From an uncultured bacterium (GTDB lineage: Bacteria; Armatimonadota; UBA5829), in assembly GCA_963775535.1 (NCBI GenBank), contig CAVZJH010000066.1, forward strand, positions 1 through 15,363: a stretch of 15,363 bases of DNA, given 5' to 3'. Both the position numbers and the translations under genes were made by a program. Positions 97 through 15,363 of the stretch are shown here, piece by piece (position 1 is the stretch's first letter; every line of letters starts with the position of its first letter). Under the pieces are notes generated by a model. That model was given only the letters and a program-made list of their open reading frames with translations, had not been told where the DNA came from and searched no databases.

Positions 97-880
97 ATGA
101 GTTTTCATGACATTCTTCAATGGTGGAACCTGATCTACGTTGCTCCGCTGTTCGTCTCCGTCGTCTGGATCGTGGCGACCCTGTTTTCCGGGGTGCACGC
201 CGGGGGCGGCGGCCACTCCGTGTCCCATGGCGTCGACCACGCGGCGCACGGCATCGGACACGCCACGCACGATGTCGGCCACGCAGTGGGCCACGTCGTT
301 CACCACGGCGATGCCGGGGCCGATCACGATGCCGCCCACGCTCACGAAGCCGCGCCGCACGGCGCCCACGCTCACGGCGCGCACGCCGCCCACACCGATG
401 CCCATCAGGAAAGCTTTGGATCGCGCGTGCTTTCGGTGACTGGGAATCGGCCAGGTTCCGATCACGCTGATCTTCGGCATATTCATGCCGTTCTGGGGCG
501 CACTCGGAATGACCACAAACCAGTTCCTGGCCGGCATTTTGAAGTTTCCCCTCATCTACATCTGGCCATCGCTGGGAATCACGTTCGTCGTGAGCTGCGC
601 GGTTACCCGGTCACTGATCGCCGTGATTGCGCGATGCATGCCGAACACCGAGACTTACGGAGTTTCGCGAATGGAGCTTATCGGCTCGCTGGGACGCGCC
701 CTCTATCCCACTACCGAAAGCGCCGGCACAGTAGACATCAAGGACACGTACGGAACGCTCCACCGAGTGCAGGCGAAGACGGAGTCGGGGCAGGAATCGA
801 TACCGTCGGGCTCCGAGGTCATAGTTATCGATTTTGACGAGGAGGACAAACGCTTCGTAGTCAGAATAAGTAGTCTCTAA
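97..880 (+). CDS. NfeD/YqiJ-like inner-membrane protein with a histidine-rich low-complexity insert; the reading frame shifts +1 near 436-445
   Basis: AGGAGG at 84-89 sits 7 nt before ATG 97. Frame 1 (94-~438) encodes a TM helix (LIYVAPLFVSVVWIVATLF) followed by about 70 aa of His/Ala/Gly/Asp repeats (HSVSHGVDHAAHGIGHATHDVGHAVGHVVHH...). Frame 2 (440-880) encodes two further TM helices (LGIGQVPITLIFGIFMPFWGALG..., LIYIWPSLGITFVVSCAV) and a C-terminal beta-rich OB-like tail (SEVIVIDFDEEDKRFVVRI) typical of NfeD. Its position directly upstream of a flotillin gene matches the yqiJ-yqiK pairing. The frame-1 text after ~440 and the frame-2 text before 440 both look non-protein, so this is one gene with a single frameshift. 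Confidence 0.6.
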
Positions 881-910
881 CCACAAACAACAGGAAAGGG
901 GTTCTATCTC

Positions 911-2935
911 ATGGGAATTATTGTGTTAATGGGCCTGATCGGCCTTACGATGATCATCGGGCCATTCTTCTATCCGGTCACGACGATCAGCCGCGGCATA
1001 CTCCTCGGTTTTGGAGCGCTGCTGACGGTCGTTTCCATTGTTCTGACGCTGATCACCCAGTGGTACCAGCGAGCATCGGCTGAAGAAGCTATAGTCAGGA
1101 CGGGTATGGGCGGCAGCAAGGTGATCATCGACGGCGGCATAATGACGGTTCCGGTCGTCCACCGCATCACCCGCGTCTCACTCAAGGTTATTAAGCTCAC
1201 GTGCGTCCGTGAAGGGCCGGACGCTCTTATTACCAGGGATTACCTGCGCGCGGACGTTCACTCCGAGTTTTATATGAGAGTGGGCGCTACGCCGGAGCAG
1301 GTTCTGAACGCCGCTCGGTCCTTTGGCGAGGAATCAGGCACTGAGGAGAGGATCGATGCCAAGGTCGGCGAGAAGTTGATCTCGGCGCTGCGCTCAGTCG
1401 CAGCGAAACACGAACTGGCTGAGCTCCACTCCGACCGCGAGAGCTTTGCTATCGCCGTCCAGGAACTCGTCGCGAAGGAGATCGAGCCCAACGGTTTGAC
1501 GCTGGAGACGGTCACTATTTCCAGACTCGACCAGACCGACCCCGCGCACCTGAACGACAACAACGTCTTCGACGCGCAGGGAAAACGGAAGATCACCGAG
1601 ATCACCACCGCCGCACTCGTCGCACGCAACGAACTGGAGCGCACGGCCGAGCAGGCCACCACGCAGAAGAACGTATCGACCCGAAAGAGCGTTCTTACCC
1701 TGCAGCAAGACCAGGCTACGGCCGAAGCCGAACAGCAGATGCAGATCAACAAGGTCCAGGCCGAAAAGCAGCGCGAGGCCGACGTCTATCGCATCGAGCA
1801 GGAGCGGCAGACCCAGCAGGCGCAGATCGTGGCGGATCAGTCGGTGAGGCAGGCGGATATCGCCAAGGAGCAGACGATCCAGACCACCGAGGTCGACAAG
1901 GTCAAGATGGTCGAGGTTGCCACCCGGGACCAGCAGATCGCTATCACCCAGAAGGAAGCCGAGAGGGCAGATGCCGAACGCGCAAGATACGACGCCGAGG
2001 CCGCGCGCGAACAGGCCAACCAGCAGGTTAAGACCGTTGAGGTTGTGGCGGGGGCCGAGCGCGAAGCCAGGCAAAAGCTGATCGGCGCGGAGAACGAGGC
2101 GCAGCAGGCCCTGGTCCGAAAGCAGAAGGACGCAGACGCCATCGCCTACCAGAAGCAGAAGGAAGCGGAAGGCGAGTTCAACGCCGCGCAGAGCCGTGCA
2201 AAAGCCACCCTCACAATGGCGGACGCCGATTCGCAGGCTAAGATGCGACTGGCTGAAGGTGAAAGAGCCGTCCAGTTCGTTCCTGTCCAGGTAGAAGCCG
2301 AGCGGGTGGAAGTGAACCGCAAGCAGATGGAGGTAGACCGGGCTTCCGCCGAATACAGGCAGCAGTTCGAAAAATCCGCCATCGAGTTCGAGGTTGCCAA
2401 GCTCGAGGTCAATGCGAGAAAAGAGATCCAGATCGCAATGGCGAACGCGATCGGCAACTTCGTCCAGCAGGGCAGCTACACGGTGTACGGGACCCCGGAC
2501 ACAATGGCCGATATGCTCGAGAAACTGTCCAAGGGCCTTGGGGTTGGAGCGTTCATCGACGGTATGGGCAAGAGCATCCTCGGTGGCAACGGCGACCGCT
2601 CACCTGCCGAGACCGTCGGCGACCTCGCCGGCCTGGTCGGAGAGGCCATAAAGAAAGCAACCGGCAAGGACGTGAGCGTTGCTCCGGAGCTCGCCCAGAA
2701 GATCGCTTCCCTGGTCCTGGGCAATGAGCCCGACCAGAAGGCGTCTCGAGTCCGCTCCAAAAGTCGCCGAGGGGCTCCGCCCGGACGGCAGTATCAGAAA
2801 GACCGAGCGGAAACCGCAGGCTTAATTCTGCGTCTATTAGATGGGGGGGTGAGGGTCTTAGGACCCTCACCCCAGTGCTTTCTTGAGCGAGGTGACGCGC
2901 TGGTTCGCTATGCCGCGCGAATTGAGACTTGTTGA
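911..2935 (+). CDS. Flotillin-like SPFH/band-7 domain protein (YqiK-like) with a long Q/E/A-rich coiled-coil region; the true 3' end may be about 2824
   Basis: An RBS (aggaaagggg) lies about 10 nt upstream of ATG 911. The N-terminal TM helix is followed by the SPFH signature (GGSKVIIDGGIMTVPVVHRITRVSLKVIKLTCVREGPDALITRDYLRADVHSEFYMRV). About 350 aa of heptad-like AEQ/ERQ repeats follow. The last about 60 aa in this frame are Arg-rich junk. An alternative frame gives ...ESAPKVAEGLRPDGSIRKTERKPQA and stops at about 2824, just before the hairpin at 2846-2873, which suggests a frameshift in the tail near 2735-2750. Confidence 0.8.
   Translation: MGIIVLMGLIGLTMIIGPFFYPVTTISRGILLGFGALLTVVSIVLTLITQWYQRASAEEAIVRTGMGGSKVIIDGGIMTVPVVHRITRVSLKVIKLTCVREGPDALITRDYLRADVHSEFYMRVGATPEQVLNAARSFGEESGTEERIDAKVGEKLISALRSVAAKHELAELHSDRESFAIAVQELVAKEIEPNGLTLETVTISRLDQTDPAHLNDNNVFDAQGKRKITEITTAALVARNELERTAEQATTQKNVSTRKSVLTLQQDQATAEAEQQMQINKVQAEKQREADVYRIEQERQTQQAQIVADQSVRQADIAKEQTIQTTEVDKVKMVEVATRDQQIAITQKEAERADAERARYDAEAAREQANQQVKTVEVVAGAEREARQKLIGAENEAQQALVRKQKDADAIAYQKQKEAEGEFNAAQSRAKATLTMADADSQAKMRLAEGERAVQFVPVQVEAERVEVNRKQMEVDRASAEYRQQFEKSAIEFEVAKLEVNARKEIQIAMANAIGNFVQQGSYTVYGTPDTMADMLEKLSKGLGVGAFIDGMGKSILGGNGDRSPAETVGDLAGLVGEAIKKATGKDVSVAPELAQKIASLVLGNEPDQKASRVRSKSRRGAPPGRQYQKDRAETAGLILRLLDGGVRVLGPSPQCFLERGDALVRYAARIETC
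2846..2873. terminator. Perfect 12-bp GC-rich stem-loop (GGGGTGAGGGTC-TTAG-GACCCTCACCCC) between the convergent flotillin and pdhB genes; a likely bidirectional terminator or REP-like palindrome
   Basis: I read the palindrome directly from the sequence. It is followed on the plus strand by AGTGCTTTCTTG, which is T-rich, and it lies between two convergent gene ends. Confidence 0.4.
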
Positions 2936-3008
2936 AACTGTGTCCGGGCAGATCAGCAATTCGCGGATTGTGTTCGGGCAGATTTGCAATCTGGCCCGCA
3001 AAAAGCGC

Positions 3009-4016
3009 CTATATCGACGCTGCTATGGCCCCCGCCTGCGCGCCCGTGAGCGCCTTCTTCACCGCTGTCAGGATCTTTGCCTCGTCCGGCAGCGCGGAGA
3101 GCTCCAGTTCCCGGGAATACGGCATCGGGTTGTCCGCGAGGGTGACTCTGTCGATCGGCGCGTCGAGGTAGTCGAATGCGTGGTGCTGGATTTGATCCAC
3201 GATCTGCGCCCCGACCCCGCACATGGGCCAATCCTCTTCTACTATGACAACGTGGTTGGTCTTCTTTACGGACCTGACCATCGTTGCCACGTCCATCGGG
3301 CGCAGGGTCCGCAGGTCCACTACCTCCGCATTGATCCCCTCGTAAGCCAGCTTGTCGGCGGCCTTCATGGCCACGCTGACCATTCTGAGATAGGCGATAA
3401 TCGTGACGTCTGTTCCCTGCCGCTTGATATCCGCCTTTCCCAGCGGGATCGTGTATTCCTCGTCGGGAACTTCGCCCTTCATCGAATAGAGCAGTTCGTG
3501 CTCGAGGAATATGACGGGGTTATTATCCCGGATGGCGCTCTTTAAGAGGCCCTTGGCATCATAGGGCGTGGCCGCGGCAGCCACTTTCAGGCCCGGAACG
3601 TGCACAAACCAAGACTCCAGGTTCTGCGAGTGCTGTGCTCCGAGCTGCATTCCGGCTCCCTCCAGAGCCCGAATCACCATGGGAACACTGAGCTGACCAC
3701 CGCTCATGTATCTGAGCTTTGCGGCGTGGTTTACGATCTGGTCCATCGCCAGCACCGCGAAGTTGATGGTCATCATCTCCACCACAGGCCTGAGCCCCAG
3801 CATCGCCGCACCCGTCCCGATCCCCGCGAGGACCAGCTCGGAAATAGGGCTGTCCCGCACGCGCGTCTCGCCGAACTCCTCGAGCAGCCGCTCGGTCACC
3901 CGGTAAGCTCCCTGGTACTGCGCCACTTCTTCGCCTATGAGAAAGACGTTCTCATCACGCCGCATCTCCTCGCGAAGGGCATGGTTAAGAGCCTGTCTGT
4001 AGTATATCGACGGCAT
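3009..4016 (-). CDS. pdhB: 2-oxoacid (pyruvate/acetoin) dehydrogenase E1 component beta subunit
   Basis: The 335-aa product has the transketolase-like pyrimidine-binding and C-terminal domains of E1-beta (LIGEEVAQYQGAYRVTERLLEEFGETRVRDSPISE..., PMCGVGAQIV). An AAGGAG RBS lies 8 nt upstream of the ATG on the minus strand. It sits immediately downstream of the E1-alpha gene. Confidence 0.85.
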   Translation of the reverse strand: MPSIYYRQALNHALREEMRRDENVFLIGEEVAQYQGAYRVTERLLEEFGETRVRDSPISELVLAGIGTGAAMLGLRPVVEMMTINFAVLAMDQIVNHAAKLRYMSGGQLSVPMVIRALEGAGMQLGAQHSQNLESWFVHVPGLKVAAAATPYDAKGLLKSAIRDNNPVIFLEHELLYSMKGEVPDEEYTIPLGKADIKRQGTDVTIIAYLRMVSVAMKAADKLAYEGINAEVVDLRTLRPMDVATMVRSVKKTNHVVIVEEDWPMCGVGAQIVDQIQHHAFDYLDAPIDRVTLADNPMPYSRELELSALPDEAKILTAVKKALTGAQAGAIAASI

Positions 4017-4033
4017 CGCGGCACACTCCTTTC

Positions 4034-4198
4034 GAGTGGGGGGCTTTGCCCCCTAACCCCCACCAGAGACCGCCGTCTCTGGACTCTGCTGGGGCCAAGG
4101 GCCCCAGACCCCTGGCTCGCTTCGCGTCTATGCTCACCCTAACGGTGAGCATAGACGCGAAGCGCAATATGGGGGTCCAGGAGGCAAAGCCCCCACTT
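4034..4198. repeat. 165-bp nested palindromic element in the pdhA-pdhB intercistronic space
   Basis: An outer imperfect stem pairs GTGGGGGGCTTTGCC (4034-4050) with GGCAAAGCCCCCAC (4183-4196). Three internal hairpins lie inside it. The first is CCAGAGAC-cgcc-GTCTCTGG (4063-4082). The second is CTGGGGCC-aag-GGCCCCAG (4089-4107). The third is a perfect 20-bp stem, GCTTCGCGTCTATGCTCACC-ctaac-GGTGAGCATAGACGCGAAGC (4119-4163). Confidence 0.7.
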
Positions 4199-5154
4199 CA
4201 CGCGTATACGTCCTGCCACAGCGCTTCGGGCGGTGGCAGGGGTGATTTCTCAGCAAACTCAACAGCTTCTTCTATCTCGCTGTCCACATCCGCCTGTATC
4301 TTTTCGATGTCCTCCGGCGTCAGTATTCCCTCATCGAGGAGGACGGCGCCGAAGGTGACTATCGGATCGCGCGTGCGCCACTCCTCGATCTCGTTCCTCG
4401 ACCGATATGTGCCGGGGTCGGACATCGAGTGGCCGCGAAACCGATAGGTTACAGCCTCCACGAACATCGGGCGCTTTTCTTCCCGCACGTGCTTCATGGC
4501 TTTCTGGGCGACCTCGCAGACGGCCAGCACGTCCATTCCGTCCACGCTCTCCACTTCCATGGCGTAACACTGAGCGCGGCGGTGCAGGTTCGGCACAGCG
4601 GATGCGCGCTCCACCGCCGTGCCCATGCCGTATAGATTGTTCTCGCAGACGAACAGAATTGGCAGGTTCCACAGCGAGGCAACGTTGAGGGTTTCGTGGA
4701 ATGCGCCTTCGTTGACGGCGCCATCTCCAAAGAAGCTCAGGCATATCTGGTCTCCACCGCGATAGTTGATGGCGTAGCCGATCCCTGCCGCAAGGGGTAA
4801 TCCCCCGCCGACTATTGCAGTGCCGCCGAGGAATCGCCTGTCCACGTCGAAAAGGTGCATGGAACCGCCCTTGCCGCCCGAGACCCCCGTCGCCTTGCCG
4901 AACAACTCCGCCATGACGCGGCTGGGGCTCGCGCACCTGGCGAGCGCGTGGCCGTGGTCGCGGTAGGCGCCAATCACGTAGTCGTCCGGCCTGAGCGGCC
5001 ACGTGAATCCGCTGGCAACCGCCTCCTGGCCGATGTAGAGGTGCAGGAACCCGCGAACCTTCCCCTGTTCATACATTTCCCCCGCGGCTTCCTCGAACTT
5101 TCTGATCATCGCCATCTCGCGGTAGACGCCTATCTTGTCCTGCTTACTGAGCAT
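4198..5154 (-). CDS. pdhA: 2-oxoacid (pyruvate/acetoin) dehydrogenase E1 component alpha subunit (TPP-dependent)
   Basis: The 318-aa product has the TPP-binding motif region (GDGAVNEGAFHETLNVASLWNLPILFVCENNLYGMGT) and the typical E1-alpha N-terminus (LYIGQEAVASG). It is followed by the beta subunit. Confidence 0.85.
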   Translation of the reverse strand: MLSKQDKIGVYREMAMIRKFEEAAGEMYEQGKVRGFLHLYIGQEAVASGFTWPLRPDDYVIGAYRDHGHALARCASPSRVMAELFGKATGVSGGKGGSMHLFDVDRRFLGGTAIVGGGLPLAAGIGYAINYRGGDQICLSFFGDGAVNEGAFHETLNVASLWNLPILFVCENNLYGMGTAVERASAVPNLHRRAQCYAMEVESVDGMDVLAVCEVAQKAMKHVREEKRPMFVEAVTYRFRGHSMSDPGTYRSRNEIEEWRTRDPIVTFGAVLLDEGILTPEDIEKIQADVDSEIEEAVEFAEKSPLPPPEALWQDVYA

Positions 5155-5180
5155 TGCACACCCCAGGACCTAAAAAACTA

Positions 5181-6022
5181 TCTGGTTAGTCGCGTGGTAT
5201 GAGCTTCTGACCAGCGGTCCTGATTCAACATACCCAAATCCCATATCAAGCGCAATGCGTCTGAGTTCGGAGAATTTCGTCGGGGGTGTAGTATCTGGAG
5301 ATGGGGACGTGGTTTTTGGAGGGGGCAAGGTACTGGCCGATGGTGAGGATGTCGCAGTGGGCTTCGCGCAGATCGCGAATGGCTTCCAGCAGTTCGTCCC
5401 AAGTCTCGCCGACGCCGACCATCACGCCCGACTTGGTGCGGATCGAGGAATCTATGCCTTTTGCCTTCTTGAGCAGCGCGATGGACCTGGTGTAGAGAGC
5501 CTGGGGGCGAACGAAGGGGGTAGCAGCGTTCGACGGTTTCGATGTTGTGGTTAAGGATCTCGGGCTTCGCTTCTACAACAAGCCCCAGAATCGCTCGTCA
5601 CCCTGGAAATCTGGAATAAGCACCTCGACTGAACACTCCTCGACACCCTGGTGTATCAACCCTATGGTCTGGGCAAAAACGTGCGCACCCCCGTCGATTT
5701 GATCGTCCCGGGTAACGCTGGTAACCACCGCATGACGGAGCTGCAAATAAGCTGCGGCCTGGGCCACGCGACGAGGTTCGTCCTCGTCCACAGGCCCCGG
5801 CGCGCCGTGGTTCACCGCGCAGAAGCGGCAGTTGCGCGTGCAGGTGTTTCCGAGAATCATAAAGGCAGCAGTGCGAGAGTGCCAGCACTCGCCGATGTTA
5901 GGGCAGTTTGCGCTCTGGCAGACGGTGTGCAGGTGCGCGGACTCAACGAGCCTTTTCACGCCTTCGTAATTCTCTCCCGCGGGAGCTTTGGCTTTTATCC
6001 AGTCAGGGCGCTGCAATCTCAC
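5181..6022 (-). CDS. lipA: Lipoyl synthase LipA (radical SAM); the coding sequence is interrupted by three single-nucleotide frameshifts
   Basis: The N-terminal segment (GTG 6022 down to 5573) carries both LipA cysteine motifs, CxxxCPNxxEC and CTRxCxFC ([16 protein letters not shown]..., [14 protein letters not shown]). The remainder of LipA can be read on the minus strand in two other frames: ...[24 protein letters not shown], then [80 protein letters not shown], then [34 protein letters not shown] and a stop at 5181. The frame shifts fall near 5575, in the G5/C5 run near 5516-5520, and at the A3 run near 5270. Confidence 0.8.
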
Positions 6023-6163
6023 TCACCAATCCTTACGCGGATATTTTACCACATCGAAAGGGTGGAAGCGCCGATCATCCGGCGTAAGGAGACGCCGGAC
6101 CATCGGGCTTTTCGTGTTTCCTTCCTTTCGTGATTAAACTCCCTTCCCCTTCGGCAATCGACC

Positions 6164-6192
6164 TTGCTAATGCGCAGCAGCCTTGGTAAAAT
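6164..6192 (+). promoter_or_regulatory. Sigma-70-like promoter candidate (TTGCTA -17- TAAAAT) upstream of the deaminase operon
   Basis: Read directly from the sequence: -35 TTGCTA at 6164-6169, a 17-nt spacer, and -10 TAAAAT at 6187-6192. It lies about 29 nt upstream of GTG 6221, in the divergent lipA/deaminase intergenic region. Confidence 0.35.
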
Positions 6193-6220
6193 ACTTCTAG
6201 TACTCTTGTGAGGCTGCCGC

Positions 6221-6670
6221 GTGTCTGACCGACCTTCGTTTGATAGAGTGTATATGGATGTCGTGGATATCATCGCCAGGCGGTCGACGTGCCTGCGAAA
6301 ACACGTTGGGGCAGTGATCACCATCGACCACCGCATACTTTCGCACGGCTACAACGGCGTCCCCAGCGGCCAGGAGCACTGCTGCGATACGAAGCAATGC
6401 CTCAAGGACAGGGCGGGCACCGAAGAATACAAAGTTTGCGTGCATGCCGAGCAAAATGCCATCTGCCAGTGTGCCAAGCGCGGCCTCGCTCTGGAGGGCG
6501 CGACGGTGTATGTGAACGCCGACATCTGCATCACCTGCGCTAAGCTGATGATCTCCTCGGGGATTGCCCGGTGCGTGGTCAAGCGCGACCACAAGGGGAC
6601 CTCGGACGGAGCCGGACTTCTAATAAAATGCGGCGTGGAAGTGGTGGAGTGGCCGGATGGCGCATTCTGA
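6221..6670 (+). CDS. dCMP deaminase family (ComEB/Dcd-type) zinc-dependent deaminase
   Basis: The 149-aa product has the diagnostic motifs ARRSTCLRKHVGAVI, GYNGVPSG..HC, HAEQNAI (the zinc-binding H-x-E) and ICITCAKLMI (PCxxC). The start is GTG. Confidence 0.75.
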   Translation: MSDRPSFDRVYMDVVDIIARRSTCLRKHVGAVITIDHRILSHGYNGVPSGQEHCCDTKQCLKDRAGTEEYKVCVHAEQNAICQCAKRGLALEGATVYVNADICITCAKLMISSGIARCVVKRDHKGTSDGAGLLIKCGVEVVEWPDGAF

Positions 6671-7343
6671 CCCGACCCTGAAAGCGGTAGTATTCGATAT
6701 AGGGGCTACGCTGGTTACGGGACCGCCCGTTGCTCCCAACAAGGTCATTGCCGCGCTCATAGACGGTGCCAGCGCCGCTGAGGTTTCATCGGTGATCATG
6801 ACAACCGAACTGCTCTCCGCCGAGCACGCTTGCGCCGTGCTGCAGGCGAGGTTCGGTTCTCTGAGCGAGACGGCGGTTTCCGGAATCACCCGGCTTTGGA
6901 GATCTCAGATAACGGCGGCGGTGGGGATCGAAGGCGCGTGCGAGACCGCGATGTCGATCAAGCGGCGAGGGCTGAAGCTGGGGCTGTTATCGGACATCTG
7001 GAACCCGTATTACGCAAGTGTTCAGAGGGCGCTGCCGGAGGTCGTGAGGGCCGCGGACGCTGTTGTGCTGAGCTGCAGGACCGGGGCGCGCAAACCGGAG
7101 CGCGACAACTTCCAGGCAGTATTGGACGAGCTGGGATTGGCGCCGGGCGAGGTGGTAATGGTGGGGGATACCTATGCCCACGATATTCTTCCCGCTATCG
7201 AGATGGGAATGCCGACGGTGTGGGTGATGGCGAGGCCGGAGCGCGAGGCGGATTCGATTGTGCGCATCCTGAACGGGGAGAATCCGGCGCCGACGGTGAC
7301 GGTTTCCCACATAAGCCAGGTCGCGTGTCTGAAGATTTTCTAA
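6657..7343 (+). CDS. HAD-superfamily hydrolase; motif I is D-I-G-A-T rather than DxDxT
   Basis: Motif I is VVFDIGATLV. Motif II is LLSDIWNP. The motif III lysine is in ARKPERDNF. Motif IV is MVGDTYAHDI. The gene overlaps the deaminase by 14 nt, indicating translational coupling. Confidence 0.7.
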   Translation: MAHSDPTLKAVVFDIGATLVTGPPVAPNKVIAALIDGASAAEVSSVIMTTELLSAEHACAVLQARFGSLSETAVSGITRLWRSQITAAVGIEGACETAMSIKRRGLKLGLLSDIWNPYYASVQRALPEVVRAADAVVLSCRTGARKPERDNFQAVLDELGLAPGEVVMVGDTYAHDILPAIEMGMPTVWVMARPEREADSIVRILNGENPAPTVTVSHISQVACLKIF

Positions 7344-7360
7344 TCAAGAAAGAATAAACT

Positions 7361-7445
7361 TGGGAGGGTTTCTACCCTCACCCCTGCTGTGGACCCACTG
7401 GACCACAGCACCCCCTCTCCCTGTGAGGGTGAGGATGGAAACGCA
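7361..7445. repeat. Structured GC-rich nested inverted-repeat element in the HAD to ParB-like intergenic space; it shares the CCCTCACCCC core with the hairpin at 2846-2873
   Basis: Outer arms GTTTCTACCCTCACCC (7368-7383) and GGGTGAGGATGGAAAC (7427-7442) are imperfect reverse complements. Inner hairpins are GAGGG/CCCTC (7364-7379), GCTGTGG...CCACAGC (about 7385-7409) and CCCTC...GAGGG (7413-7429). Confidence 0.5.
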
Positions 7446-7479
7446 GCGATCCCAGAAAACCATAGAGAGGTGTTGAGGA

Positions 7480-8094
7480 ATGGAAATACAGCGAGTGGAA
7501 CGTCATAGTGTGGATGAACTGGTGGCCAACCTGCGCAGGGTGGGCATGTTCACCGACCCCGAGGCGCGCGTCTACAAGAACTCGGTAATCGAGCTCACCT
7601 CGTTTCACACAAATGAGATCGCGCCGGCCCAGCGATACGTGCTGGCGAGTGAGATCACAAAGGTGCGCGACTTGAAGTGGGCGCTGGCGGAGCACGCTGT
7701 GGACTTGTTCAGGCTCGATGGCTACGCGACTATCTGGCTGGAGGGCTACGACGATCCGATAGACGTTCTGCCGCCCGTTATCGAACAGTCCGCGGAGGCC
7801 GACGGCAGCGTAGTGAAGATTTTGAACGACGGTATGCACCGGGTCTACCTCGCGAGGATGGAGCGATCCCCGATCCAGGTGGTCTACATCCGCAATGTGC
7901 CGGAGCAGTATCCGTATTACGCGTTCCCGCTCGTGAACGGCTGGAACGATGTTGCGATCATGCAGGACCTGCCCGAGGGCTACATAAAGAAATGGCATCG
8001 CATCAAGAACTACAAGAGCCTTTACAGAGACTTCAACACCGGCTTCCAGAATGTCGGCGGGCCCAGAGGGCACTTCTCTAATGCCGGAAAGTAA
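7480..8094 (+). CDS. ParB/sulfiredoxin-fold (ParB-like nuclease domain) protein
   Basis: The 204-aa product contains VLPPVIEQSAEADGSVVKILNDGMHRVYLARMERSPIQVV. This matches the ParB/Srx core pattern: a Pi.v segment, then l.DGhHR..Aa, then an i.v segment. GAGAGG lies about 9 nt upstream of ATG 7480. The stop codon overlaps the start of the next gene. Confidence 0.5.
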   Translation: MEIQRVERHSVDELVANLRRVGMFTDPEARVYKNSVIELTSFHTNEIAPAQRYVLASEITKVRDLKWALAEHAVDLFRLDGYATIWLEGYDDPIDVLPPVIEQSAEADGSVVKILNDGMHRVYLARMERSPIQVVYIRNVPEQYPYYAFPLVNGWNDVAIMQDLPEGYIKKWHRIKNYKSLYRDFNTGFQNVGGPRGHFSNAGK

Positions 8095-9522
8095 TGATCT
8101 CGAGTTCATTGCGCTTCATTTCCCGGACAAGCTGAGGATCGTTAACCCCCGCGCTCGCCTCGGAGTTATTACGCTCTGGAGCAGGATCGAGTTTGTAGAG
8201 AGCAAGCTCGCTCAGATGGGGGTCGACCTGAACCCTGCAACTTCTAAAATAGCGGTCATCGGCAACCTCTACGGCAACGGCATTCCGCACTTGCTTCGCA
8301 ACCTGCTCTACAACCCGCAGATTCGCGACCTCGTGATATGCGGGGCGAACAAGTCCGGCTCCGCCGAGGAATTGATCGCGTTTTTCGAATCCGGGACCGA
8401 GCGCGCCACGAGCCTTGGAGAAAGCGTCACGCGAATAAAGGGGACAAGGCGGATCATCGACGACGCGCTGACCCCGGAGCATTTCTCGACGAGGCCGCGC
8501 ATCACGAGGTTCGGCGAACTCAGGGACTGCGGGGGGACCTGCGGGCTTACATTGCGGCGTGCTGCCCGGCCCAAGTGAGCGCGGAGCGTGTTAAGATCGA
8601 TCTGCCGGAGGTAAAGGTCACCCACTTCCCGAGCGAGCCGCGCAACCATAACGTGGTAACGGACACCCCGCTGGCGGCCTGGCGCGAGCTTATATTCCGC
8701 CTGGTGCGCTTCGGGCACCTGGTGAAGCTGCGAAAGGGCGACCGGCAGGAGCTGCCCAACGTGCGCGTGGTGGTGCGCGAGCCCGGGGAAGATGATACCG
8801 AGGAACTGGCGAAGTTCAACTTTTCCATTGACGAGCTCAGGCAGTATCAGCGCGACATGCTCCTCGGCCCGCTGCCGGAGGACCACTGCTACACCTACGG
8901 CAACCGGATTAGGGAATACTTCGGCTTCGATTCGCTTGAAAAGTTCGCCCAAAGGCTAAAAGCGAACCCGCAGGATCGGGACTGCTACCTCGCTCTGTGG
9001 GACAGCCATCACGACATCGACGCGGATGACGCTCCGTGCCTGGTCTCGCTGTTTTTCCGGGTGTTCGATGCCAGGCTGACCCTCACCGCGACCTACCGCA
9101 CCCACAACGCGCTCGATGCGTGGCTTAAGAATGTCTACGGGCTGATGAAGGCGCAGGAGATCGTGGCCGAAAAGGCGGGGCTGCCGGTGGGGCCGCTCAC
9201 GGTGATCAGCCACTCGATCAGCATTGACCCGTCCAAGTATGACGCCGCGCTGCGCGTGGCGAATGCCAGGGGGTTCTCGCTCGAGATCGACCCCAGCGGC
9301 CAGTTTATGGTGAGCGTGGAGGATGCGGAGATAGTGGTGCGGCACATGAACGATGACGGCTTCCTGCTCCACGAATACCGCTCCAAAAAGGCCGAGCGCA
9401 TCCAGCACGAGCTCAACCGCGACTGCGCGATCTCGGACATCAACCACGCGATGTATATAGGCCGGCAGCTCGCGAAGGCCGAGATTTGCTTGAGGAGCGG
9501 GGAAGAGTTCGAGGAAGGGTAG
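8081..9522 (+). CDS. Fusion protein: N-terminal MtrA-like domain (tetrahydromethanopterin S-methyltransferase subunit A family) joined to a C-terminal divergent thymidylate-synthase-fold domain; the frame shifts within the G6 run at 8542-8547
   Basis: The N-terminal segment is LGVITLWS...IAVIGNLYGNGIPHLLRNLLYNPQIRDLVICGANKSGS. This aligns by eye to the MtrA core (lGVvTLgS ... GIEKVvAN.ISNPNIRflIlCGSEVqGH). The C-terminus has TS-fold motifs: LKANPQDRDCYLALWD matches TS l.NP.SRR....AWN. DAPCLVSLFFRV matches the PCH nucleophile region with the Cys retained. YRTHNALDA matches QRSxD. SHSISI replaces GDAHIY. Frame 2 (8081-8578) and frame 1 (about 8540-9522) join at CTGCGGGGGGACC. An alternative start is ATG 8051. 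Confidence 0.6.
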
Positions 9523-9535
9523 GACTTCGGTTTTA

Positions 9536-9618
9536 GAATCGCTGAAGCGCTGAAATGAGATGAATGCGCTGAATCCATATCTTCAGCGTCATCACAAAAT
9601 TCAGCGTCTCAGCGATTC
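9536..9618 (+). repeat. 83-bp hairpin-rich repeat element, copy A
   Basis: The sequence is GAATCGCTGAAGCGCTGAAA...CGCTGAATCCATATCTTCAGCGTCATCAC.AAATTCAGCGTCTCAGCGATTC. It has 19-bp terminal inverted repeats with 2 mismatches and an internal stem GATGA..CGCTGAA/TTCAGCG-TCATC. It is about 90% identical to copy B. Confidence 0.8.
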
Positions 9619-9694
9619 GCTGCACTCAAATCTCGAAACATCGGGGCGTGGGTTTCTAAGGGTGAACTTCATTCAAGGCTAACGGAGGTCACAG

Positions 9695-10225
9695 TTGGAT
9701 GTGGATAAATTCATCAATTGCTTTGTAGATGCCATCAACCGTGCCCAAAAGGAGCCAGTTTGGGATAACGAATCTCCCGCCAGCGTCTACATTGGAGAAC
9801 AGTGGGATCAGGACAGGCACGAATGGCGAATTAAGCCTTACGAGTCGGTTGACTGGATCGCACCGTTAGAGCAGCAAATCAAACTCTCTTTTCCCAGGCT
9901 CTACCGCTCGCTTGTGACACGCTACATTTTCCCGGCCTTCGATATCGACGATCTCAACATATCTTTCCTGGGCAATACGCCAGAGGGCACGGACTTCCGT
10001 GAGATGAGAGATCGTCTGCTGACAAGCGGTATGTCTCACATATTGCTGCCTAACGGGTATCTTCACTTTGCAAATCCGCTTGACGGGCGAATGTTTGATC
10101 CGCTGTGCTTTGACACGAAGCGAACGAACGAGCACGGCGACTGCCCCATTGTCAGGATCGATCATGAGGCGATATTAGGTTACAACGAATCATCTATAGT
10201 TGAGGAGATTCGCGCCGTCGTTTGA
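9695..10225 (+). CDS. Low-GC hypothetical protein that resembles SUKH/SMI1-KNR4-type immunity proteins
   Basis: GGAGG lies 6 nt before TTG 9695. The 176-aa product has SUKH-like segments (WIAPLEQQIKLSFPRLYRSLVTRYIFPAF; LLPNGYLHFANPLDGRMFDPLCFD). GC is visibly lower, at about 50%, than the flanking DNA. The assignment is by eye only. Confidence 0.4.
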   Translation: MDVDKFINCFVDAINRAQKEPVWDNESPASVYIGEQWDQDRHEWRIKPYESVDWIAPLEQQIKLSFPRLYRSLVTRYIFPAFDIDDLNISFLGNTPEGTDFREMRDRLLTSGMSHILLPNGYLHFANPLDGRMFDPLCFDTKRTNEHGDCPIVRIDHEAILGYNESSIVEEIRAVV

Positions 10226-10300
10226 GGGGTTGGTAGAGCGGATCATCCAAGGAGTTATATGACGTTTCCTTCGGGGTTTGTTTCTGACCACCACATGTCT

Positions 10301-10383
10301 GAATCGCTGAAGCGCTGAAAGCGGATGAGAACGCTGAATCCATATCTTCAGCGTCATCACGAAATTCAGCGTCTCAGCGATTC
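10301..10383 (+). repeat. 83-bp hairpin-rich repeat element, copy B, a direct repeat of 9536-9618
   Basis: The two copies are identical except for about 7 substitutions, which are clustered in the internal bulge segment (TGAGATGAATG in A, GCGGATGAGAA in B) and one A/G position. Confidence 0.8.
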
Positions 10384-10417
10384 AATGCGCCACCACAACT
10401 AAGAAGCGGATTTTGTG

Positions 10418-10442
10418 TTTCGGGAATCTTGTTCCCGAAACG
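10418..10442. terminator. 10-bp perfect stem-loop GTTTCGGGAA-tcttg-TTCCCGAAAC between convergent genes
   Basis: I read the palindrome directly. It lies 30 nt beyond the stop of the minus-strand secreted-protein gene and downstream of the plus-strand cassette. There is no clear U-tract on either strand, so it could be a terminator or an mRNA-stabilising hairpin. Confidence 0.35.
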
Positions 10443-10472
10443 AACCGTGCATATCGGGAATACCAGCCCCCG

Positions 10473-11153
10473 TCACTCGCTCTTTGGCTGCACGTAATCT
10501 CCCAGCCAGCCCCAGACCGCTACTTTGATGATTGAACTGAACTGGCTTGGGTCGTAGGGCGTGGTCTGCAACTTCTGGCCGTCGAGATAGGCGGTTACAA
10601 GTTTGGCATCGGGGTCCAGGCGCAGGCCTACTACCGCCCATTTCTTGGGAGGCAGGACCGACCTCGTTATAAGGTTCGTCATGCCCATTTTGCCGTTGCA
10701 GATGCCAACACCGTAAGAGGTTTCACCGTGGCTTGCCTGAACCACTGCAACCGACATATCATCCCGGTCATTGCCGGAGCGCACGAGGAAGTTTACGAAA
10801 CCACCACTCCCCTGATCCGCGGCAGGCGGCAGGTAAACGCGCGCGCTCAAGTCCACGGTCCCAGCGCGCGGCACCTGAACATTGTGAAAAGCACACGCCA
10901 CAGGCTGCGTGTCCCGGTTAAGGTACATGCAATAAAGAGGAGGCTGCTCACCCATGCAAACAGTAGTGACGCTGTGGACGGCCGTCCAGGTGCTGATATT
11001 GCCGCTGTCGAAGTTGTCGAAAAAGACTGGATTGCCGTCATTGCGGAGTTGGAAATCCGTAACGTAAATGCCTCCGCCGGCGTGACATGCGAGTGGCGCT
11101 GCAAGGCACAGCGCGACAAAAGCCAACACGGTAAAACCAGTAACTGATCTCAT
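10473..11153 (-). CDS. Secreted hypothetical protein with an N-terminal signal peptide and a beta-rich domain of unknown function
   Basis: GGAGGA lies 6 nt upstream of the ATG on the minus strand. The N-terminus MRSVTGFTVLAFVALCLAAPLACHA is a typical Sec signal. The 226-aa product has Gly/Asn/Asp-rich composition and no recognisable catalytic motif. Confidence 0.65.
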   Translation of the reverse strand: MRSVTGFTVLAFVALCLAAPLACHAGGGIYVTDFQLRNDGNPVFFDNFDSGNISTWTAVHSVTTVCMGEQPPLYCMYLNRDTQPVACAFHNVQVPRAGTVDLSARVYLPPAADQGSGGFVNFLVRSGNDRDDMSVAVVQASHGETSYGVGICNGKMGMTNLITRSVLPPKKWAVVGLRLDPDAKLVTAYLDGQKLQTTPYDPSQFSSIIKVAVWGWLGDYVQPKSE

Positions 11154-11205
11154 ATCTGTCCTCCGGTCACATTATGGTCCCGACCACCGGGACTCGGCTG
11201 CCTGC

Positions 11206-11234
11206 ATGATATGCTTGCTTTGCCGCTATGTCAA
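11206..11234 (-). promoter_or_regulatory. Near-consensus sigma-70-like promoter (TTGACA -17- TATCAT) for the secreted-protein gene
   Basis: The minus-strand sequence reads TTGACATAGCGGCAAAGCAAGCATATCAT. The -10 element ends about 50 nt upstream of the ATG at 11153. Confidence 0.4.
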
Positions 11235-11272
11235 CATACCTGGAACGCAACAATACGTTCGACATATGCGGG

Positions 11273-11301
11273 TTGACGAAACGACGCCTATTTGATACAT
11301 T
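11273..11301 (+). promoter_or_regulatory. Sigma-70-like promoter candidate (TTGACG -17- TACATT) for the amidohydrolase gene
   Basis: Read directly from the sequence. It lies in the divergent intergenic region, about 80 nt upstream of GTG 11382. Confidence 0.3.
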
Positions 11302-11381
11302 GTGGCTAGCAGGCAAGGCTATCATGCATATGACCTGGTGAACGAGCTTATGAACAGCGAGGATGGCTAGAGCCAACACAC

Positions 11382-12712
11382 GTGAGCATCGACCTTTCCA
11401 CCACCCCCAACTTCTGCGCGCACGAGCATTGGGGGTGCATTGATTCCATCGGCAAAAACCCTCAGGACTTCCGCGTCGATCTCGAGCGCGGCGCGACGCC
11501 CAGCGCTTCCCTCGGCTCTTCGACATCCTCGTTGACCCGTATCTGAACTGGATGCTCGGTCTCGCCGGAGTGAATGTCGATGAACTCGCTGGCGGCGATT
11601 TCCGGAGCTTGGCCGCACGCTCACCGGCCGAGGCGATGGCTGTCATTCGTCCGGCCCTGAACCGCCAACGGCTGACAGGAACTTATCAGTGCACCCGCCG
11701 GGGGATGCTGAAGCTCTACGGCTTTGATGTGGACAGCGGCGATCCACGGGAAATCGAAGCGCTGAATGCGGCCATAGCGCACGCCTACTCCAACATGTTC
11801 GCCTGGTACCGCGCCGCTATGGACAAAGCCCATTTCTCGGAGGTGATTCGCCCGGTCCACCCCGAATACTTCACGGCCCAGCAGTCGCCGGAGACGGCCG
11901 CGCGGGAGTCGGCGTTCGTTAATACGATCATGCGTATCGATTCCCTGCTTGCGCTCTGGCCGAGGAAATGCCCGCGCAGGGACGCGCTTGCGAACATACT
12001 CGGCGTCGAGCCGGTCGATGCGAAGAGCTGGCGCGAGTTTATCCACGCGATACTCGACCTTGCCGCGGAAAATGGAACCACCGGCATCAAGCAGGCTCAG
12101 GCCTACGACCGGCGCCTGACGTTCGTCGCGCGCGAGGATTCTGAAGTCGCGTTCTCCGCGGACATGACTCCCGAGCAGGTGCGCGTGTGGCAGGACTGGG
12201 CTGCGCACGTATGCTTCGAATATGCCGACGACCGGGGCTGGCCGCACCAGGTCCACGTGGGAACCCACAACTTGCCTCATTCCTCCCCGCTTCCCCTGGG
12301 TGATGTCGCGGCCCGCTACGGACGAATGAAACTCGTGCAAATCCACTGCTGGCCGTTCCTGAAAGAAGCCGGGTGGCTGGCTAAGCACTACCCCAACGTC
12401 TACATAGACAGTTGCTGGCTGCCGATCCTGAGCCCCGGGTTCTACCGAGAAGCCCTCATGACCTGGCTCAACTATGTGCCCATCCACAAGCTCATGTGCT
12501 CGCACGATGCAACGTGCGTCGAAATGGCGGTCGGGTCTTCGCTCTTCACGCGAGAAATATTAGCCGAAGCGCTCGTAGAGCAAACGCACAGCTTCGGTCT
12601 TTCAACGAGCGATCTCGAGCAAACCGCAGCAGACCTTCTGCATAACAACGCGGCGACGGTCTACGGGATTGGCGTGCAAAAAACTACAACACCAGCACAT
12701 TCTCTCGCGTAG
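11382..12712 (+). CDS. Metal-dependent TIM-barrel amidohydrolase (amidohydrolase-2-like); the frame shifts near 11495-11510
   Basis: The N-terminal piece in frame 3 (VSIDLSTTPNFCAHEHWGCIDSIGKNPQDFRVDLE) carries the HxH metal motif. The main ORF (11552-12712) carries later barrel motifs (QVHVGTHN, QIHCWPF, MCSHDA). The frame-2 upstream sequence ARRDAQRFPRLFDILVDPYLNW connects the two pieces. Confidence 0.5.
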
Positions 12713-12754
12713 TTCTACTGGCGGACGTTCAGGGGCTTCGCCCCCGAACCCTCA

Positions 12755-12799
12755 CCAAGGGCGCTGCCCTTGGATCCCGCCAGGAAACTGTGTTTCCTG
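12755..12799. terminator. Pair of 8-bp stem hairpins (CCAAGGGC-gct-GCCCTTGG and CAGGAAAC-tgt-GTTTCCTG) after the amidohydrolase stop
   Basis: Read directly from the sequence. It is preceded by GGGGC-ttc-GCCCC and a CCCTCACC motif at 12732-12754, and lies between convergent transcription units. Confidence 0.35.
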
Positions 12800-12960
12800 G
12801 ACATTCCGACTCCCTTCGCGTATGTCCACATAAAGAAGATAGATATAATGCGCTCGCAGACAACTTACTTGTAAAACCTGTTCATGACGCCCAAAGCACG
12901 AAGAAGCACCGCTGTCGTTGGGTCTCCAGGTATCAGTGTGAAGCGGTCAATGACGCGAGT

Positions 12961-13790
12961 TTCTCATTGACAAGGTTAAGCAGTTCGGCCTCGGAGGGCT
13001 GCCAGGAGCTCGGCAGGACGTCGCGCAAGCCCGTGACCACAGCCTGCTTGTAAGGCCGGTCGTTTTCCAGCGCGTCTTTGAACAGACCGAATTCCTTCTA
13101 CCGAGTTCGACCGCGCTAATTCTCTCACACAGCTTTCCGCGTAGCCGCCTTTCTTGATCCCTTCCAGCAGTAAGGAACAGCGGCATCACCAAATGCCTGA
13201 TGTATCTCTGAGGCAATCGGGAACATCGGGAAGAAGAACCCATCCAACCTATCCGAAGTATCCGTTGAAGCGAGCAGAGGCCCTAGTTTTTGCAGGTGGC
13301 TGGTTTCGCTGCCTGATGAATGGCCCCCACCGCCTCGTCTCTGACCGATGGAACCTCCGCCAACTGCAACAAGAGATCGTGCGCCCGGTCAGTCTTAAGC
13401 ATCTCGGTCGATTAAACCAGCGGCAGAAGCGCTTCTCTCTGAATAAACGTTCGAATGTGCGGAACTGCTGCCCACACTAAGTCCTGTATCAGTTTCGGCA
13501 CCGCGGGCTGCTCCTTCCATACAACCGCGGCTGCGGATATTCGAGAAGTGAACTGCCTTCAGCGGCATCAAGACGTCCAGGGAGTGGACTGCCGCGCCTG
13601 CCGTTTCCGCGGAATGGAGTGAGAAATGGAATGATCGAGTCTGCCAACCGCCTCGCAGCGGGCTGGAACAAATCCGCGTGTCCGCTCAAATAATAGGCCA
13701 AGTCGTCAGTCAGGTCCCTCTTTGGCCAGCATTAACGCGGGATCTCGCGCCTTATGACATCATCCCCGTAGTAGTCCAGCACATTAAGGC
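12961..13790 (-). pseudogene. Decayed paralogue of the HEAT-like gene at 14529-15363, carrying multiple frameshifts and stops
   Basis: Nucleotide-level similarity to 14551-15363 runs across about 0.8 kb, with long identical blocks such as TTCATTGACAA.GTTAAGCAG.TCGGCCTCGGA.GGCTGCCAGGAG.TCGGCAGGAC and CAGCCTGCTTGTAAGGCCGGTCGTTTTCCAG. There are scattered indels. Only short broken ORFs remain (12947-13243 and 13489-13701). Confidence 0.6.
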
Positions 13791-14501
13791 ACATATTTAT
13801 ACACAAACTCGTCGTAAGATCCTTGCCAGGCGGGATAACCAAAGTGATGATGCAGGCATTTGAACAAGACTGGCAGCACCTGTTCATCGGGCTTCGCAAG
13901 CAGCGAAGGCAAGTCAATATACCTAACATGACGCCCACGTTATCCGGAGGGTGCGATATCTGATCCTCCAACCATCCGCCGCGCTGTTCGGGCGAGAACG
14001 GCTTCACTATCAATGGAGTCCAGTCCGAATAGGAGAAGATCACCCTGGCCAGCTTGTCGAACCATTTGCCATGGCCTTTGTAGCGCACCATGTAAGTGCC
14101 GGGTTTGCTGAACCGGTAGGTACCCAGATGCAGAGGCAATCTTCCCTGCAATGAGGACTGCGGCGTGCCCAACTCGTGGGACCCATCCCCCGTCATTATC
14201 CGAGCGTGGGGGGTATCGCCAGCATGCCCGAGTCGCGGAAGCGGCTTGCCGTTCAGCGTCACTTCAAAATCGTTGGGGCCGAAGAACCACGGTTCACTTG
14301 AATACGGATAGCTAAGCTGAAGTCATACTGCTGTGATCCGCGGCGAACTGAACGTGGACCCACACGGGGCATGTTCGTATACACGGGATCATCGAAAGAC
14401 AGGGTCGCGTGCGGCATGGCATCGTCCGCAAGAGCGGCTCTACCTGGCGCCAGCATCACCAGCAGGACAAAACATATCCTAAGAAACGATAGGTGCGACA
14501 T
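13732..14501 (-). CDS. Secreted hypothetical protein; the frame shifts near 14275-14290 and the 3' end is uncertain
   Basis: The signal peptide is MSHLSFLRICFVLLVMLAPGRAALA (ORF 14259-14501). It continues in another frame as ...SYPYSSEPWFFGPNDFEVTLNGKPLPRLGHAGD...GTYMVRYKGHGKWFDKLARVIFSYSDWTPLIVKPF. A single-nucleotide indel near CTTAGC joins the two frames. Confidence 0.45.
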
Positions 14502-14528
14502 AGACGAATAACCCTTTTGCTCAGCATT

Positions 14529-15363
14529 TCAACGAACCAATGCGCCTGCCAACCTTTCATTGACAATGTTAAGCAGCTCGGCCTCGGAAGGCTGCCAGGA
14601 GTTCGGCAGGACATCTCGCAAGCCCTTGACCACAGCCTGCTTGTAAGGCCGGTCGTTTTCCAGTGCGTCTTTGAACAGCCCGAAGCCTTCTACCGAGTTC
14701 GACCGCGCTAATTCCACCACACAGCTTTCGGCATCGCCGCCTTTCCCGGATCCCTTCCAGCAGGTAAGGAACAGCGGCGTCACCAAATGCACGATGTATC
14801 TCGCCGGCAATCTCGGAGGAGTCGGAGGTTTATCCAACTTATCCCCCAACGCGAGCAGTGGGCCTAACTTCGGCAGGTCCGCTGGATTGCTTGGCCTCAC
14901 AGACACACGACACCGCCAACTCTCTGACCGATGGAACCTCCGCCAACTGCAACAAAAGATCGTGCGCCCGGTCTGAGTTGAGCTGAGTCATAAACAGAAC
15001 CAGCGGCAAAAGCGCTTCGCTCTGAGTAAACGTTCGAATGTGCGGAACTGCTGCCCACACTGCGTCCTCTATCATCTTCCGCACCGCGGGCTGCTCCTTC
15101 CACGTCTGAAACCGCCCCGGAACTTCCGAGAAGTGACCTGCGTTCAGCCCCATCAGGATGTCCAGGGAGCGAACTGCCTCGCCTGCCGTTTTCGCGGAAT
15201 TGGAGTCGAGAAATGGAATGATCGACTCTACCAACTGCCTCACAACGGGCTGGAACAAATCCGCGTGTTGGCTCACGTAGTGGGCCACGGCGTCAGTAGG
15301 TCCTTCTTTGGCCAGCACGCGCGGGATCTCACGCTTTATCACATCATCCCCGGCAACCAGCGC
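14529..15363 (-). CDS. Alpha-helical (HEAT-like) hypothetical protein, 5'-partial because it runs off the window end; the frame shifts near 14905
   Basis: Two overlapping minus-strand ORFs are present (14839-15342 and 14529-14906). Their protein-like portions join as ...LLLQLAEVPSVRE, then ELARSNSVEGFGLFKDALENDRPYKQAVVKGLRDVLPNSWQPSEAELLNIVNERLAGALVR. The helix-rich repeats show no catalytic motif. Confidence 0.4.

Follow-up and report, generated by a model that had tools for sequence, protein, structure and literature searches.

The window considered here is a 15,363-nt stretch of DNA from an uncultured bacterium of the Armatimonadota lineage UBA5829 (contig CAVZJH010000066.1 of assembly GCA_963775535.1, positions 1–15,363, forward strand). 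At 9,536–10,383 it holds a gene for a SUKH-like (SMI1/KNR4) protein framed by two nearly identical 83-nt hairpins, which we call R1 elements, with a thymidylate-synthase-like gene on the left and a gene for a 226-aa protein on the right. We find that R1 belongs to a dispersed and apparently undescribed family of intergenic hairpins, and that the arms of this family also end small units that carry a gene for a GxxExxY protein, of the PD-(D/E)XK nuclease type. From these shared sequences, the reading that we favour as the probable one is that the two hairpins are sister copies, lacking an open reading frame (ORF), of a GxxExxY-associated terminal repeat, similar in kind to miniature inverted-repeat transposable elements (MITEs) or to the hairpins (REPINs) built from repetitive extragenic palindromic (REP) sequences, and that they frame the SUKH-like gene as a passenger.

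Copy 1 occupies positions 9,536–9,618 (5′ arm 9,536–9,554; 3′ arm 9,600–9,618) and copy 2 positions 10,301–10,383 (5′ arm 10,301–10,319; 3′ arm 10,365–10,383), with no strand assigned to either. The first begins 14 nt past the stop codon of the thymidylate-synthase-like gene and the second 38 nt past that of the SUKH-like gene in its corrected frame. The initial annotation had described two near-identical direct copies 765 bp apart, and this holds: the start-to-start distance is 765 bp, the orientation is direct and seven mismatches separate the copies, all at element positions 21–23, 29–31 and 61. An independent assembly (L005; ENA ERZ25039519), 96% identical over the whole window, has the two copies in the same arrangement and, in its 23.5 kb, no further R1 copy. 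The terminal inverted repeats and internal stem-loop ascribed to each copy were also recovered, with 19-nt arms (GAATCGCTGAAGCGCTGAA and TTCAGCGTCTCAGCGATTC) that are complementary at 17 of 19 positions (the remainder being one A·C and one G·T) and an inner stem of 7–8 bp. Each copy folds as a single long interrupted hairpin with a DNA free energy of −26.5 or −29.1 kcal/mol, a value (z about −5.8) that none of 200 shuffles reaches, and the window contains four occurrences of the arm pattern where 0.00 would be expected. Most of the differences between the copies had been placed in an unpaired bulge, and they do lie at interior-loop positions, which are hypervariable across the R1 family too. 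Similarity does not extend past the element borders, the left flanks being unrelated; that the duplication ends exactly at these borders we count in favour of the reading above.

A covariance model of the family, described below, detects the two copies at 83.2 bits (E 1.8e-22) and 84.7 bits (E 6.6e-23) and no others in the window, where the next match, at 16 bits, is an unrelated hairpin. The 3′ flanks of the elements read GCTGCACT and AATGCGCC and contain no T-run. A candidate third, partial copy at 14,521–14,546 (26 nt, 81% identical to the 3′ arm of copy 2 together with 8 nt of its flank, AATGCGCC) was set aside as probably due to chance: it has no fold and its BLAST match is non-significant.

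The enclosed ORF as read spans 9,695–10,225, truncated by an extra T at 10,209/10,210 relative to L005. When this T is removed, the protein runs on to ...VEEIAPSFEGLVERIIQGVI and stops at 10,262, giving a plus-strand gene (9,695–10,262) of 188 aa. The gene is compact and has its own ribosome-binding site, a GGAGG at 9,684–9,688 that lies 6 nt ahead of a TTG start codon, itself 76 nt past copy 1. Looking up the ORF exactly as read gave no match, because the copy in the window is frameshifted; it aligns along its own full length with about 30 homologues of roughly 190 aa, save for its shortened C terminus. Against the SMI1_KNR4 profile (PF09346; cut-off 25.4 bits), 17.1 bits are obtained with the ORF as read and 23.4 bits with the frame-corrected protein, the latter over positions 5–123 of the 125-position model and just under the cut-off. 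The profile is matched by 16 of 22 homologues (best E 3e-9), and the family as a whole matches PF09346 and PF14568. Given these homologues and the near-cut-off score, the resemblance to SUKH proteins noted in the initial annotation stands, and ‘SUKH-like’ is a reasonable profile-based label at the family level. Its atypical composition was likewise upheld on recalculation. The GC content of 9,536–10,383 is 0.496, in line with the about 50% first estimated for the ORF, against 0.59 in the rest of the window, for which the earlier figure of about 62% was slightly high; the GC content at third codon positions (GC3) of the gene is 0.593, against 0.74–0.85 for the upstream housekeeping genes. No toxin gene stands beside it, the neighbours being the thymidylate-synthase-like gene and the orphan 226-aa protein, for which no homologues were found, and none was seen in the three homologue contexts examined (L006–L008).

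Searches for further copies, as the initial annotation had advised, revealed a dispersed family, and yielded no empty site for the window locus. A scan of one genome per species with a 20-mer of the arm gave four matches, three of them chance matches to the 20-mer and one a true relative, an Armatimonadetes metagenome-assembled genome (L004) with identical arms and a different, longer centre. A metagenome scan, in which a match to either arm qualified, gave at least 120 loci; among the 120 listed, about 60 carry a full R1 element, with the partner arm 65–185 nt away. The covariance model, built from 24 elements, detects about 95 elements across the loci, up to six per contig. No R1 element was found in viral contigs or in the plasmid collection. 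R1 elements are intergenic hairpins of 65–185 nt with variable centres and arms that are inverted arrays of ~8-nt CGCTGA units. The consensus reads GAATCGCTGA-RR-CGCTGAA-n5-TGA-n3-CGCTGAA-loop, followed by its mirror image, each half being an array of ~8–9-nt units that end in (CGC)TGA. The centres differ from locus to locus and mostly fold on themselves (median z −2.1). At the two variable arm positions, 11 and 12 (the RR of the consensus), Watson–Crick pairs are found in 18 and 15 of 45 cases, no more than in shuffles, and RNAalifold recovers invariant outer pairs only. Because these positions lack covariation, the arms look to be conserved as sequence, in the manner of protein-recognition sites, rather than as base pairs. 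As to placement, 11 of 63 elements fall within ORFs of 200 aa or longer, where random placement would give 42 ± 3, and 27 lie within 60 nt of a gene 3′ end compared with 5 near a 5′ end.

Closeness to gene 3′ ends, the strong folding of the elements and the fact that even the variable centres still fold are features that structured elements serving the host could share, whether as RNA stabilizers, RNase III sites or attenuators in 3′ untranslated regions; the hairpins would then be conserved for their structure and would not be mobile. We consider this unlikely. No Rfam family is matched at the gathering threshold, and relaxing the E value to 10 adds only chance-level matches to miRNA models (E 0.46–2.4). 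There is no T-run terminator and no terminator-like site at either element, and no terminator or promoter signal rises above shuffles. The lack of covariation at arm positions 11–12, where sequence and not pairing is conserved, runs counter to a structural role, as do the presence/absence variation and the tight link to a nuclease gene set out below, and the occurrence of an analogous family at 70 or more places in one genome. The suggestion that the elements are copies of a structured small RNA, made in the initial annotation as one of its alternatives, is disfavoured by the same Rfam and covariation results.

The link to a nuclease gene emerged from the ORFs that lie between elements at other loci. 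In L043, L108/L055, L069 and L072, two R1 elements enclose a small ORF that encodes a PDDEXK_3/GxxExxY protein, with matches to PF13366 at E 1e-30 to 1e-32 and to TIGR04256 at 108–119 bits (cut-off 35), the L072 protein having been scanned against TIGR04256 only. A hidden Markov model (HMM) built from three of these proteins and run on all ORFs of all loci gave matches in L043, L055/L108, L069, L039/L016, L040, L072, L025 and L081, all of them element-bearing and representing at least six independent sites, and none in the ~60 loci that were chance hits. All matches except that in L040 lie 400 nt or less from a model-detected R1 element; the L040 gene has half-arms of its own, and its nearest full hairpin is ~470 nt away. 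The units are tightly packed, in the order hairpin, ribosome-binding site, ORF, hairpin, with an arm sometimes supplying the stop codon. In L025 and L040 the order is 5′ arm, GxxExxY gene, 3′ arm, so that the gene takes the place of the loop of a solo hairpin. A unit with R1 arms and a GxxExxY gene measures ~0.55–0.65 kb and encodes a PD-(D/E)XK protein of ~130 aa. Among 80 ORFs adjoining elements, PDDEXK_3 is the most frequent family; apart from it, recurrence is limited to sulfatase-related genes, which come from homologous loci, and to a few common domains represented twice each, and no transposase or integrase recurs among the neighbours of the 63 elements. Because the same arms end the gene-carrying unit, the 83-nt elements would be its ORF-less, non-autonomous form, a relationship comparable to that of a MITE to its transposon or of a REPIN to its REP-associated tyrosine transposase (RAYT).

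Alignment of 13 GxxExxY proteins shows no variation at six residues, the G, E and Y of the family motif and the D, E and K of the D...ExK catalytic triad. Sequence and profile searches of the PDB gave no solved relative, and PADLOC assigned no defence family. We know of no described function for this large family, whose members are widely annotated just ‘GxxExxY protein’. A 2012 survey of PD-(D/E)XK proteins listed it as a family of unknown function with multiple transfers (PMC3424549). One cluster of GxxExxY proteins (P0120), found on 38 contigs, was set aside as a single conserved locus across many samples rather than many genomic sites. At the locus of L108/L055, seen in many samples (L142–L151), the order FGE-sulfatase, hairpin, truncated GxxExxY, FGE-sulfatase, hairpin, GxxExxY, hairpin, sulfatase recurs unchanged from sample to sample, with all parts in one orientation; the sulfatase is followed by a convergent spacer of 222 to 495 nt, depending on the sample, that has no R1 match.

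GxxExxY genes between repeats are also found in other lineages. A tblastn search of complete plasmids and chromids gave seven GxxExxY loci in six phyla. In Gemmatirosa kalamazoonensis (L133; plasmid 1, NZ_CP007129.1), a cultured organism whose complete genome carries both repeat and nuclease, the gene lies between two ~140-nt hairpins composed of (GGACTGAAGAA)n and its complement, and this hairpin occurs at 40 or more places on one megaplasmid and 30 on the other (NZ_CP007129.1 and NZ_CP007130.1), against three places for the gene. In Bacteroides finegoldii, a GxxExxY gene bracketed by CACCACAGAGGACGCAGAGGACACGGAGGAG and CTCTGTGACCTCTGTGTCCTCTGTGGTG sits between radA and a gene for an FAD-dependent protein, a site that in Parabacteroides distasonis is empty, consisting of a 13-nt spacer only. 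In Sphingomonas parapaucimobilis, the gene is inserted between fabD and fabG and bracketed by CACGCGAAGGCGCGAGGACGCGAAG and CGCGTCTTCGCGGCTTCGCGTG; the corresponding site of S. paeninsulae is empty. The genes of Bernardetia and Persicobacter are bracketed in like manner, by units of the CACAGAGA type and of the GGATTGAA type. The brackets in these five genera are lineage-specific inverted repeats of tandem units; a 16-nt inverted repeat marks the borders of the gene in Treponema, and ~50-nt direct repeats accompany it on a Fusobacteria plasmid. With several copies of GxxExxY genes per replicon and clean empty sites, the gene-carrying unit itself appears to move. The radA/FAD spacer seems to be an insertion hot spot; in Phocaeicola massiliensis (L140, about 740–1,417) it holds a cysteine-rich ORF (225 aa from stop to stop) with no obvious inverted repeats.

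Turnover of the R1 brackets is seen at one pair of orthologous sites. L032 and L072 have flanks that are 88–90% (left) and 84% (right) identical; between them, a solo 73-nt hairpin stands in L032 and hairpin–GxxExxY–hairpin in L072. Recombination between two direct copies would leave the state of L032, which is also what such a site would look like before a gene-carrying unit inserted. Among the loci, no two contigs were found in which a site with a solo R1 hairpin in one is empty in the other; the pair L083/L115, a candidate for a presence/absence case, proved not to be one. Adjacent elements are often sisters in direct orientation. The identity of their centres is 0.84 in the window, 0.84 in L075 (around an Acyl_transf_3 acyltransferase gene), 0.86 and 0.79 around the GxxExxY genes of L069 and L108, and 0.74 and 0.77 in L110, against a baseline of 0.55 ± 0.11 (95th percentile 0.69) that is drawn from random inter-locus pairs, so that the sister similarity could reflect homogeneity within a genome rather than local copying.

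Taken with the window, these observations suggest the following course of events. A GxxExxY nuclease encoded elsewhere in the genome would recognize the arm sequence and would mobilize or copy the hairpins, preferentially into short spacers just downstream of genes. Local copying would have produced the second, near-identical element. Between the two direct copies there now lies a compact SUKH-like gene of foreign composition. If the copies recombined, or if the two outer arms were acted upon, this gene could be deleted or moved as a cassette and a solo hairpin left behind, the state seen in L032 compared with L072. We infer from sequence comparison that the GxxExxY protein is the mobilizing enzyme of the R1 hairpins, and that the SUKH unit has itself moved or can be gained and lost through the two direct copies.

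The hairpins may instead have arrived by two independent insertions, or by one local hop, into neighbouring spacers, leaving the SUKH-like gene a bystander; of the reading that we favour, only the cassette part would then be wrong. R1 favours spacers downstream of genes, sister pairs also bracket ordinary genes such as the acyltransferase gene of L075, SUKH homologues exist elsewhere without R1, and the spacer upstream of the SUKH-like gene contains a fragment of a repeat native to the lineage. Set against this, the 23.5 kb of L005 contain only two copies, both of which flank the one gene with clearly deviant GC3, and the polymorphism between a solo hairpin and a gene-bracketing pair at one orthologous site means that brackets turn over. 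We judge the bystander alternative, the strongest of the rivals, possible and distinctly the less likely of the two.

Apart from the possible homogeneity of sister centres, several results weigh against the proposal that sister copies of a GxxExxY-associated repeat frame a passenger gene. Neither a GxxExxY gene nor a remnant of one is present in the window or in L005. No target-site duplication, which the initial annotation had proposed to look for around 9,536 and 10,383, occurs at the flanks of either copy or of the whole 848-bp unit. The closest SUKH homologues reside in contexts without R1 elements, the loci L006–L008 having neither an R1 element nor a GxxExxY gene. Homologues of the thymidylate-synthase-like (thyA-like) gene led to no empty or solo-hairpin allele of the window locus: three relatives (L129–L131; 72–77% identical in this gene) lack R1 and carry three different sets of genes downstream, which makes the locus a synteny break at which an empty site is unavailable. 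The spacer ahead of the SUKH-like gene (9,619–9,694, plus strand) contains, besides the GGAGG, a fragment of a second repeat family at 9,628–9,657 that matches a 179-nt tandem unit of L130 at 90%; this lineage-native fragment argues that the SUKH unit was at least partly assembled in place. Full-text literature searches by family name and identifier returned nothing on repeats, mobility or function of GxxExxY. The cassette-like insertion first proposed for this locus is thus retained in part: the pair, the bracketing and the atypical GC content stand, and movement as one unit is a possibility. In the relatives the elements and the downstream gene order are both missing, so that no empty site was found.

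To our knowledge, the link between the GxxExxY gene and a repeat has not been described. Together, the R1 and GxxExxY evidence points to a new kind of tiny mobile element. A broader proposal, which we advance tentatively and at somewhat less than an even chance, is that GxxExxY proteins (TIGR04256/PF13366) are the nucleases of an unrecognized class of very small mobile elements, present across several phyla, that spawn abundant ORF-less hairpins able to frame and shuffle passenger genes, the SUKH-like gene of the window among them. The ~0.5-kb unit of such a class would consist of terminal inverted repeat, ORF and terminal inverted repeat, with ends built of 8–11-nt units that co-vary with the nuclease lineage, an arrangement that we propose with the same reserve. 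SUKH proteins being inhibitors of nuclease toxins, one might speculate further that the SUKH-like protein, encoded in the usual slot of the nuclease, counteracts the GxxExxY nuclease, an idea to which we attach very little probability.

The window lies in Armatimonadota, as judged from the closest named homologue of its thymidylate-synthase-like gene, which is 85% identical and labelled ‘Armatimonadetes bacterium’. The second repeat family is represented on the right of both R1 copies, by the fragment at 9,628–9,657 after copy 1 and by a hairpin, GTGTTTCGGGAATCTTGTTCCCGAAAC, at 10,415–10,441 after copy 2, which makes the region a patchwork of small repeats. In the relative L130 this family forms tandem arrays at 5,717–6,487 and 8,980–9,459, one of 95 nt × 5 directly after the same thyA-like gene and one of 179 nt × 4.3 elsewhere. 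A longer hairpin related to it interrupts the GxxExxY gene of L081, within about 2,900–3,000.

Other features of the window lie further from the hairpins. A co-oriented cluster conserved between the window (6,221–9,522) and L130 (3,822–8,714) encodes a dCMP deaminase, a HAD hydrolase, a ParB-CE domain protein and the thymidylate-synthase-like protein, the last with a C-terminal PterinBD-DUF4346 domain; by its gene content it looks like a pyrimidine-modification module. Between the genes for the pyruvate dehydrogenase E1 beta and alpha subunits lies a ~160-nt multi-hairpin element (4,035–4,197) with a perfect 21-nt inverted repeat at 4,118–4,164 and a DNA fold of −69 kcal/mol (z −13); it has no Rfam match and, at 16 bits, is not a member of R1. 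On the minus strand, 12,964–13,814 and 14,557–15,352 are tandem paralogues sharing blocks that are 81–93% identical and 1,583–1,594 bp apart; one has a weak HEAT-like match, and L005 (15,445–16,125) suggests a further copy beyond the end of the window. Several genes are split or shortened relative to homologues or to L005: in addition to the frameshift in the SUKH-like gene at 10,209/10,210, the thymidylate-synthase-like gene is read as overlapping ORFs (8,051–8,578 and 8,338–9,522) and lipoyl synthase is cut to 149 aa at 5,573–6,022. L005 is fragmented at other places, which suggests that these are indel errors of long-read assemblies, not real pseudogenes.

For GxxExxY proteins, lineage-specific hairpins and clean empty sites within conserved gene pairs such as fabD–fabG suggest a concrete and testable role, that of a nuclease partnered with its own repeat. 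For genome annotation, this pairing of repeat and nuclease would explain one kind of strong palindrome found between genes, in Armatimonadota as in other phyla, and hairpin-bracketed genes such as the SUKH-like gene become candidates for recent gain or loss.

Among known systems, integron cassettes show a similar plan, with a single compact ORF followed by an imperfect palindrome that has conserved ends and a variable centre, and two direct sites could allow excision of a circle. That the hairpins are attC-like sites for the tyrosine recombinase of an integron-type cassette system is nevertheless very improbable. The palindromes are imperfect in the right way, with a 2-nt gap, often mismatched, between two boxes, and a single compact ORF does lie between two sites. 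R1 differs in having none of the R″/R′ core motifs: neither GTTRRRY nor RYYYAAC occurs in either copy or within 20 nt of it on either strand, as the initial annotation had stated. No Phage_integrase match was obtained among the called genes in the 20.3 kb of L005 that span the whole window, no integrase recurs beside the 63 elements, and most elements are solitary and scattered among housekeeping genes rather than arrayed next to an integrase. The same annotation had offered an undescribed MITE-like or recombination-site pair as one possible description, which comes close to the repeated, hairpin-forming and non-attC pair described here.

In ORF-bearing intervening sequences of 23S rRNA and in free-standing homing-endonuclease genes, a selfish ORF occupies the loop of a stem formed by terminal inverted repeats, and ORF-less hairpins also exist. 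The GxxExxY units share this small ORF-in-stem design and are wedged into conserved operons (fabD–fabG, radA–FAD); their host sites differ in being spacers between protein-coding genes. The SUKH-like gene, for its part, is solitary and compositionally atypical, like many orphan immunity genes of polymorphic toxin systems; it differs from these in that neither it nor its homologues in L006–L008 have a toxin gene next to them and that the ORF falls just below the Pfam cut-off.

In MITE-bracketed composite units, two MITE copies flank a passenger gene. R1 resembles a MITE in being small (83 nt), non-coding and ended by inverted repeats, and in sharing its arms with a gene-carrying unit, as the arm–GxxExxY–arm order of L025 and L040 illustrates; in the window, one passenger gene lies between two copies, whose outer arms could be the ends of a composite unit. 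It departs from MITEs in lacking a target-site duplication and a recognized transposase family, and its mobility is a matter of inference.

REPIN–RAYT systems pair inverted conserved arms, set around a spacer that is less well conserved, with a small gene that has its cognate repeats on either side (PMC3116915, PMC3337134). The resemblance extends to short extragenic hairpins with two inverted conserved arms and a variable spacer, to a small gene of ~0.4–0.5 kb with cognate repeats, to lineage-specific pairing of repeat and gene, and to an excess of repeats over gene copies (at least 70 against 3 in Gemmatirosa). It is close enough to ask whether R1 elements are simply ordinary REP/REPIN elements mobilized by a RAYT, an HUH-Y1 transposase, the published description of which (PMC3337134) the arms, spacer and small gene fit; we regard this as the least probable of the alternatives considered here. 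No Y1 transposase family is found among the recurrent neighbours, where a ~130-aa PD-(D/E)XK GxxExxY protein recurs instead, and the R1 arms are arrays of 8-nt units, not a single REP palindrome, the tandem units being of 8–11 nt when the relatives of R1 are included. By analogy, the REPIN–RAYT partnership is nonetheless the closest parallel in its likely mode of working, with class membership failing on the partner enzyme. If the role proposed here for the GxxExxY protein is correct, R1 and its relatives would form a second, mechanistically different long-term partnership of repeat and enzyme, a PD-(D/E)XK counterpart of the relationship between RAYT and REPIN.

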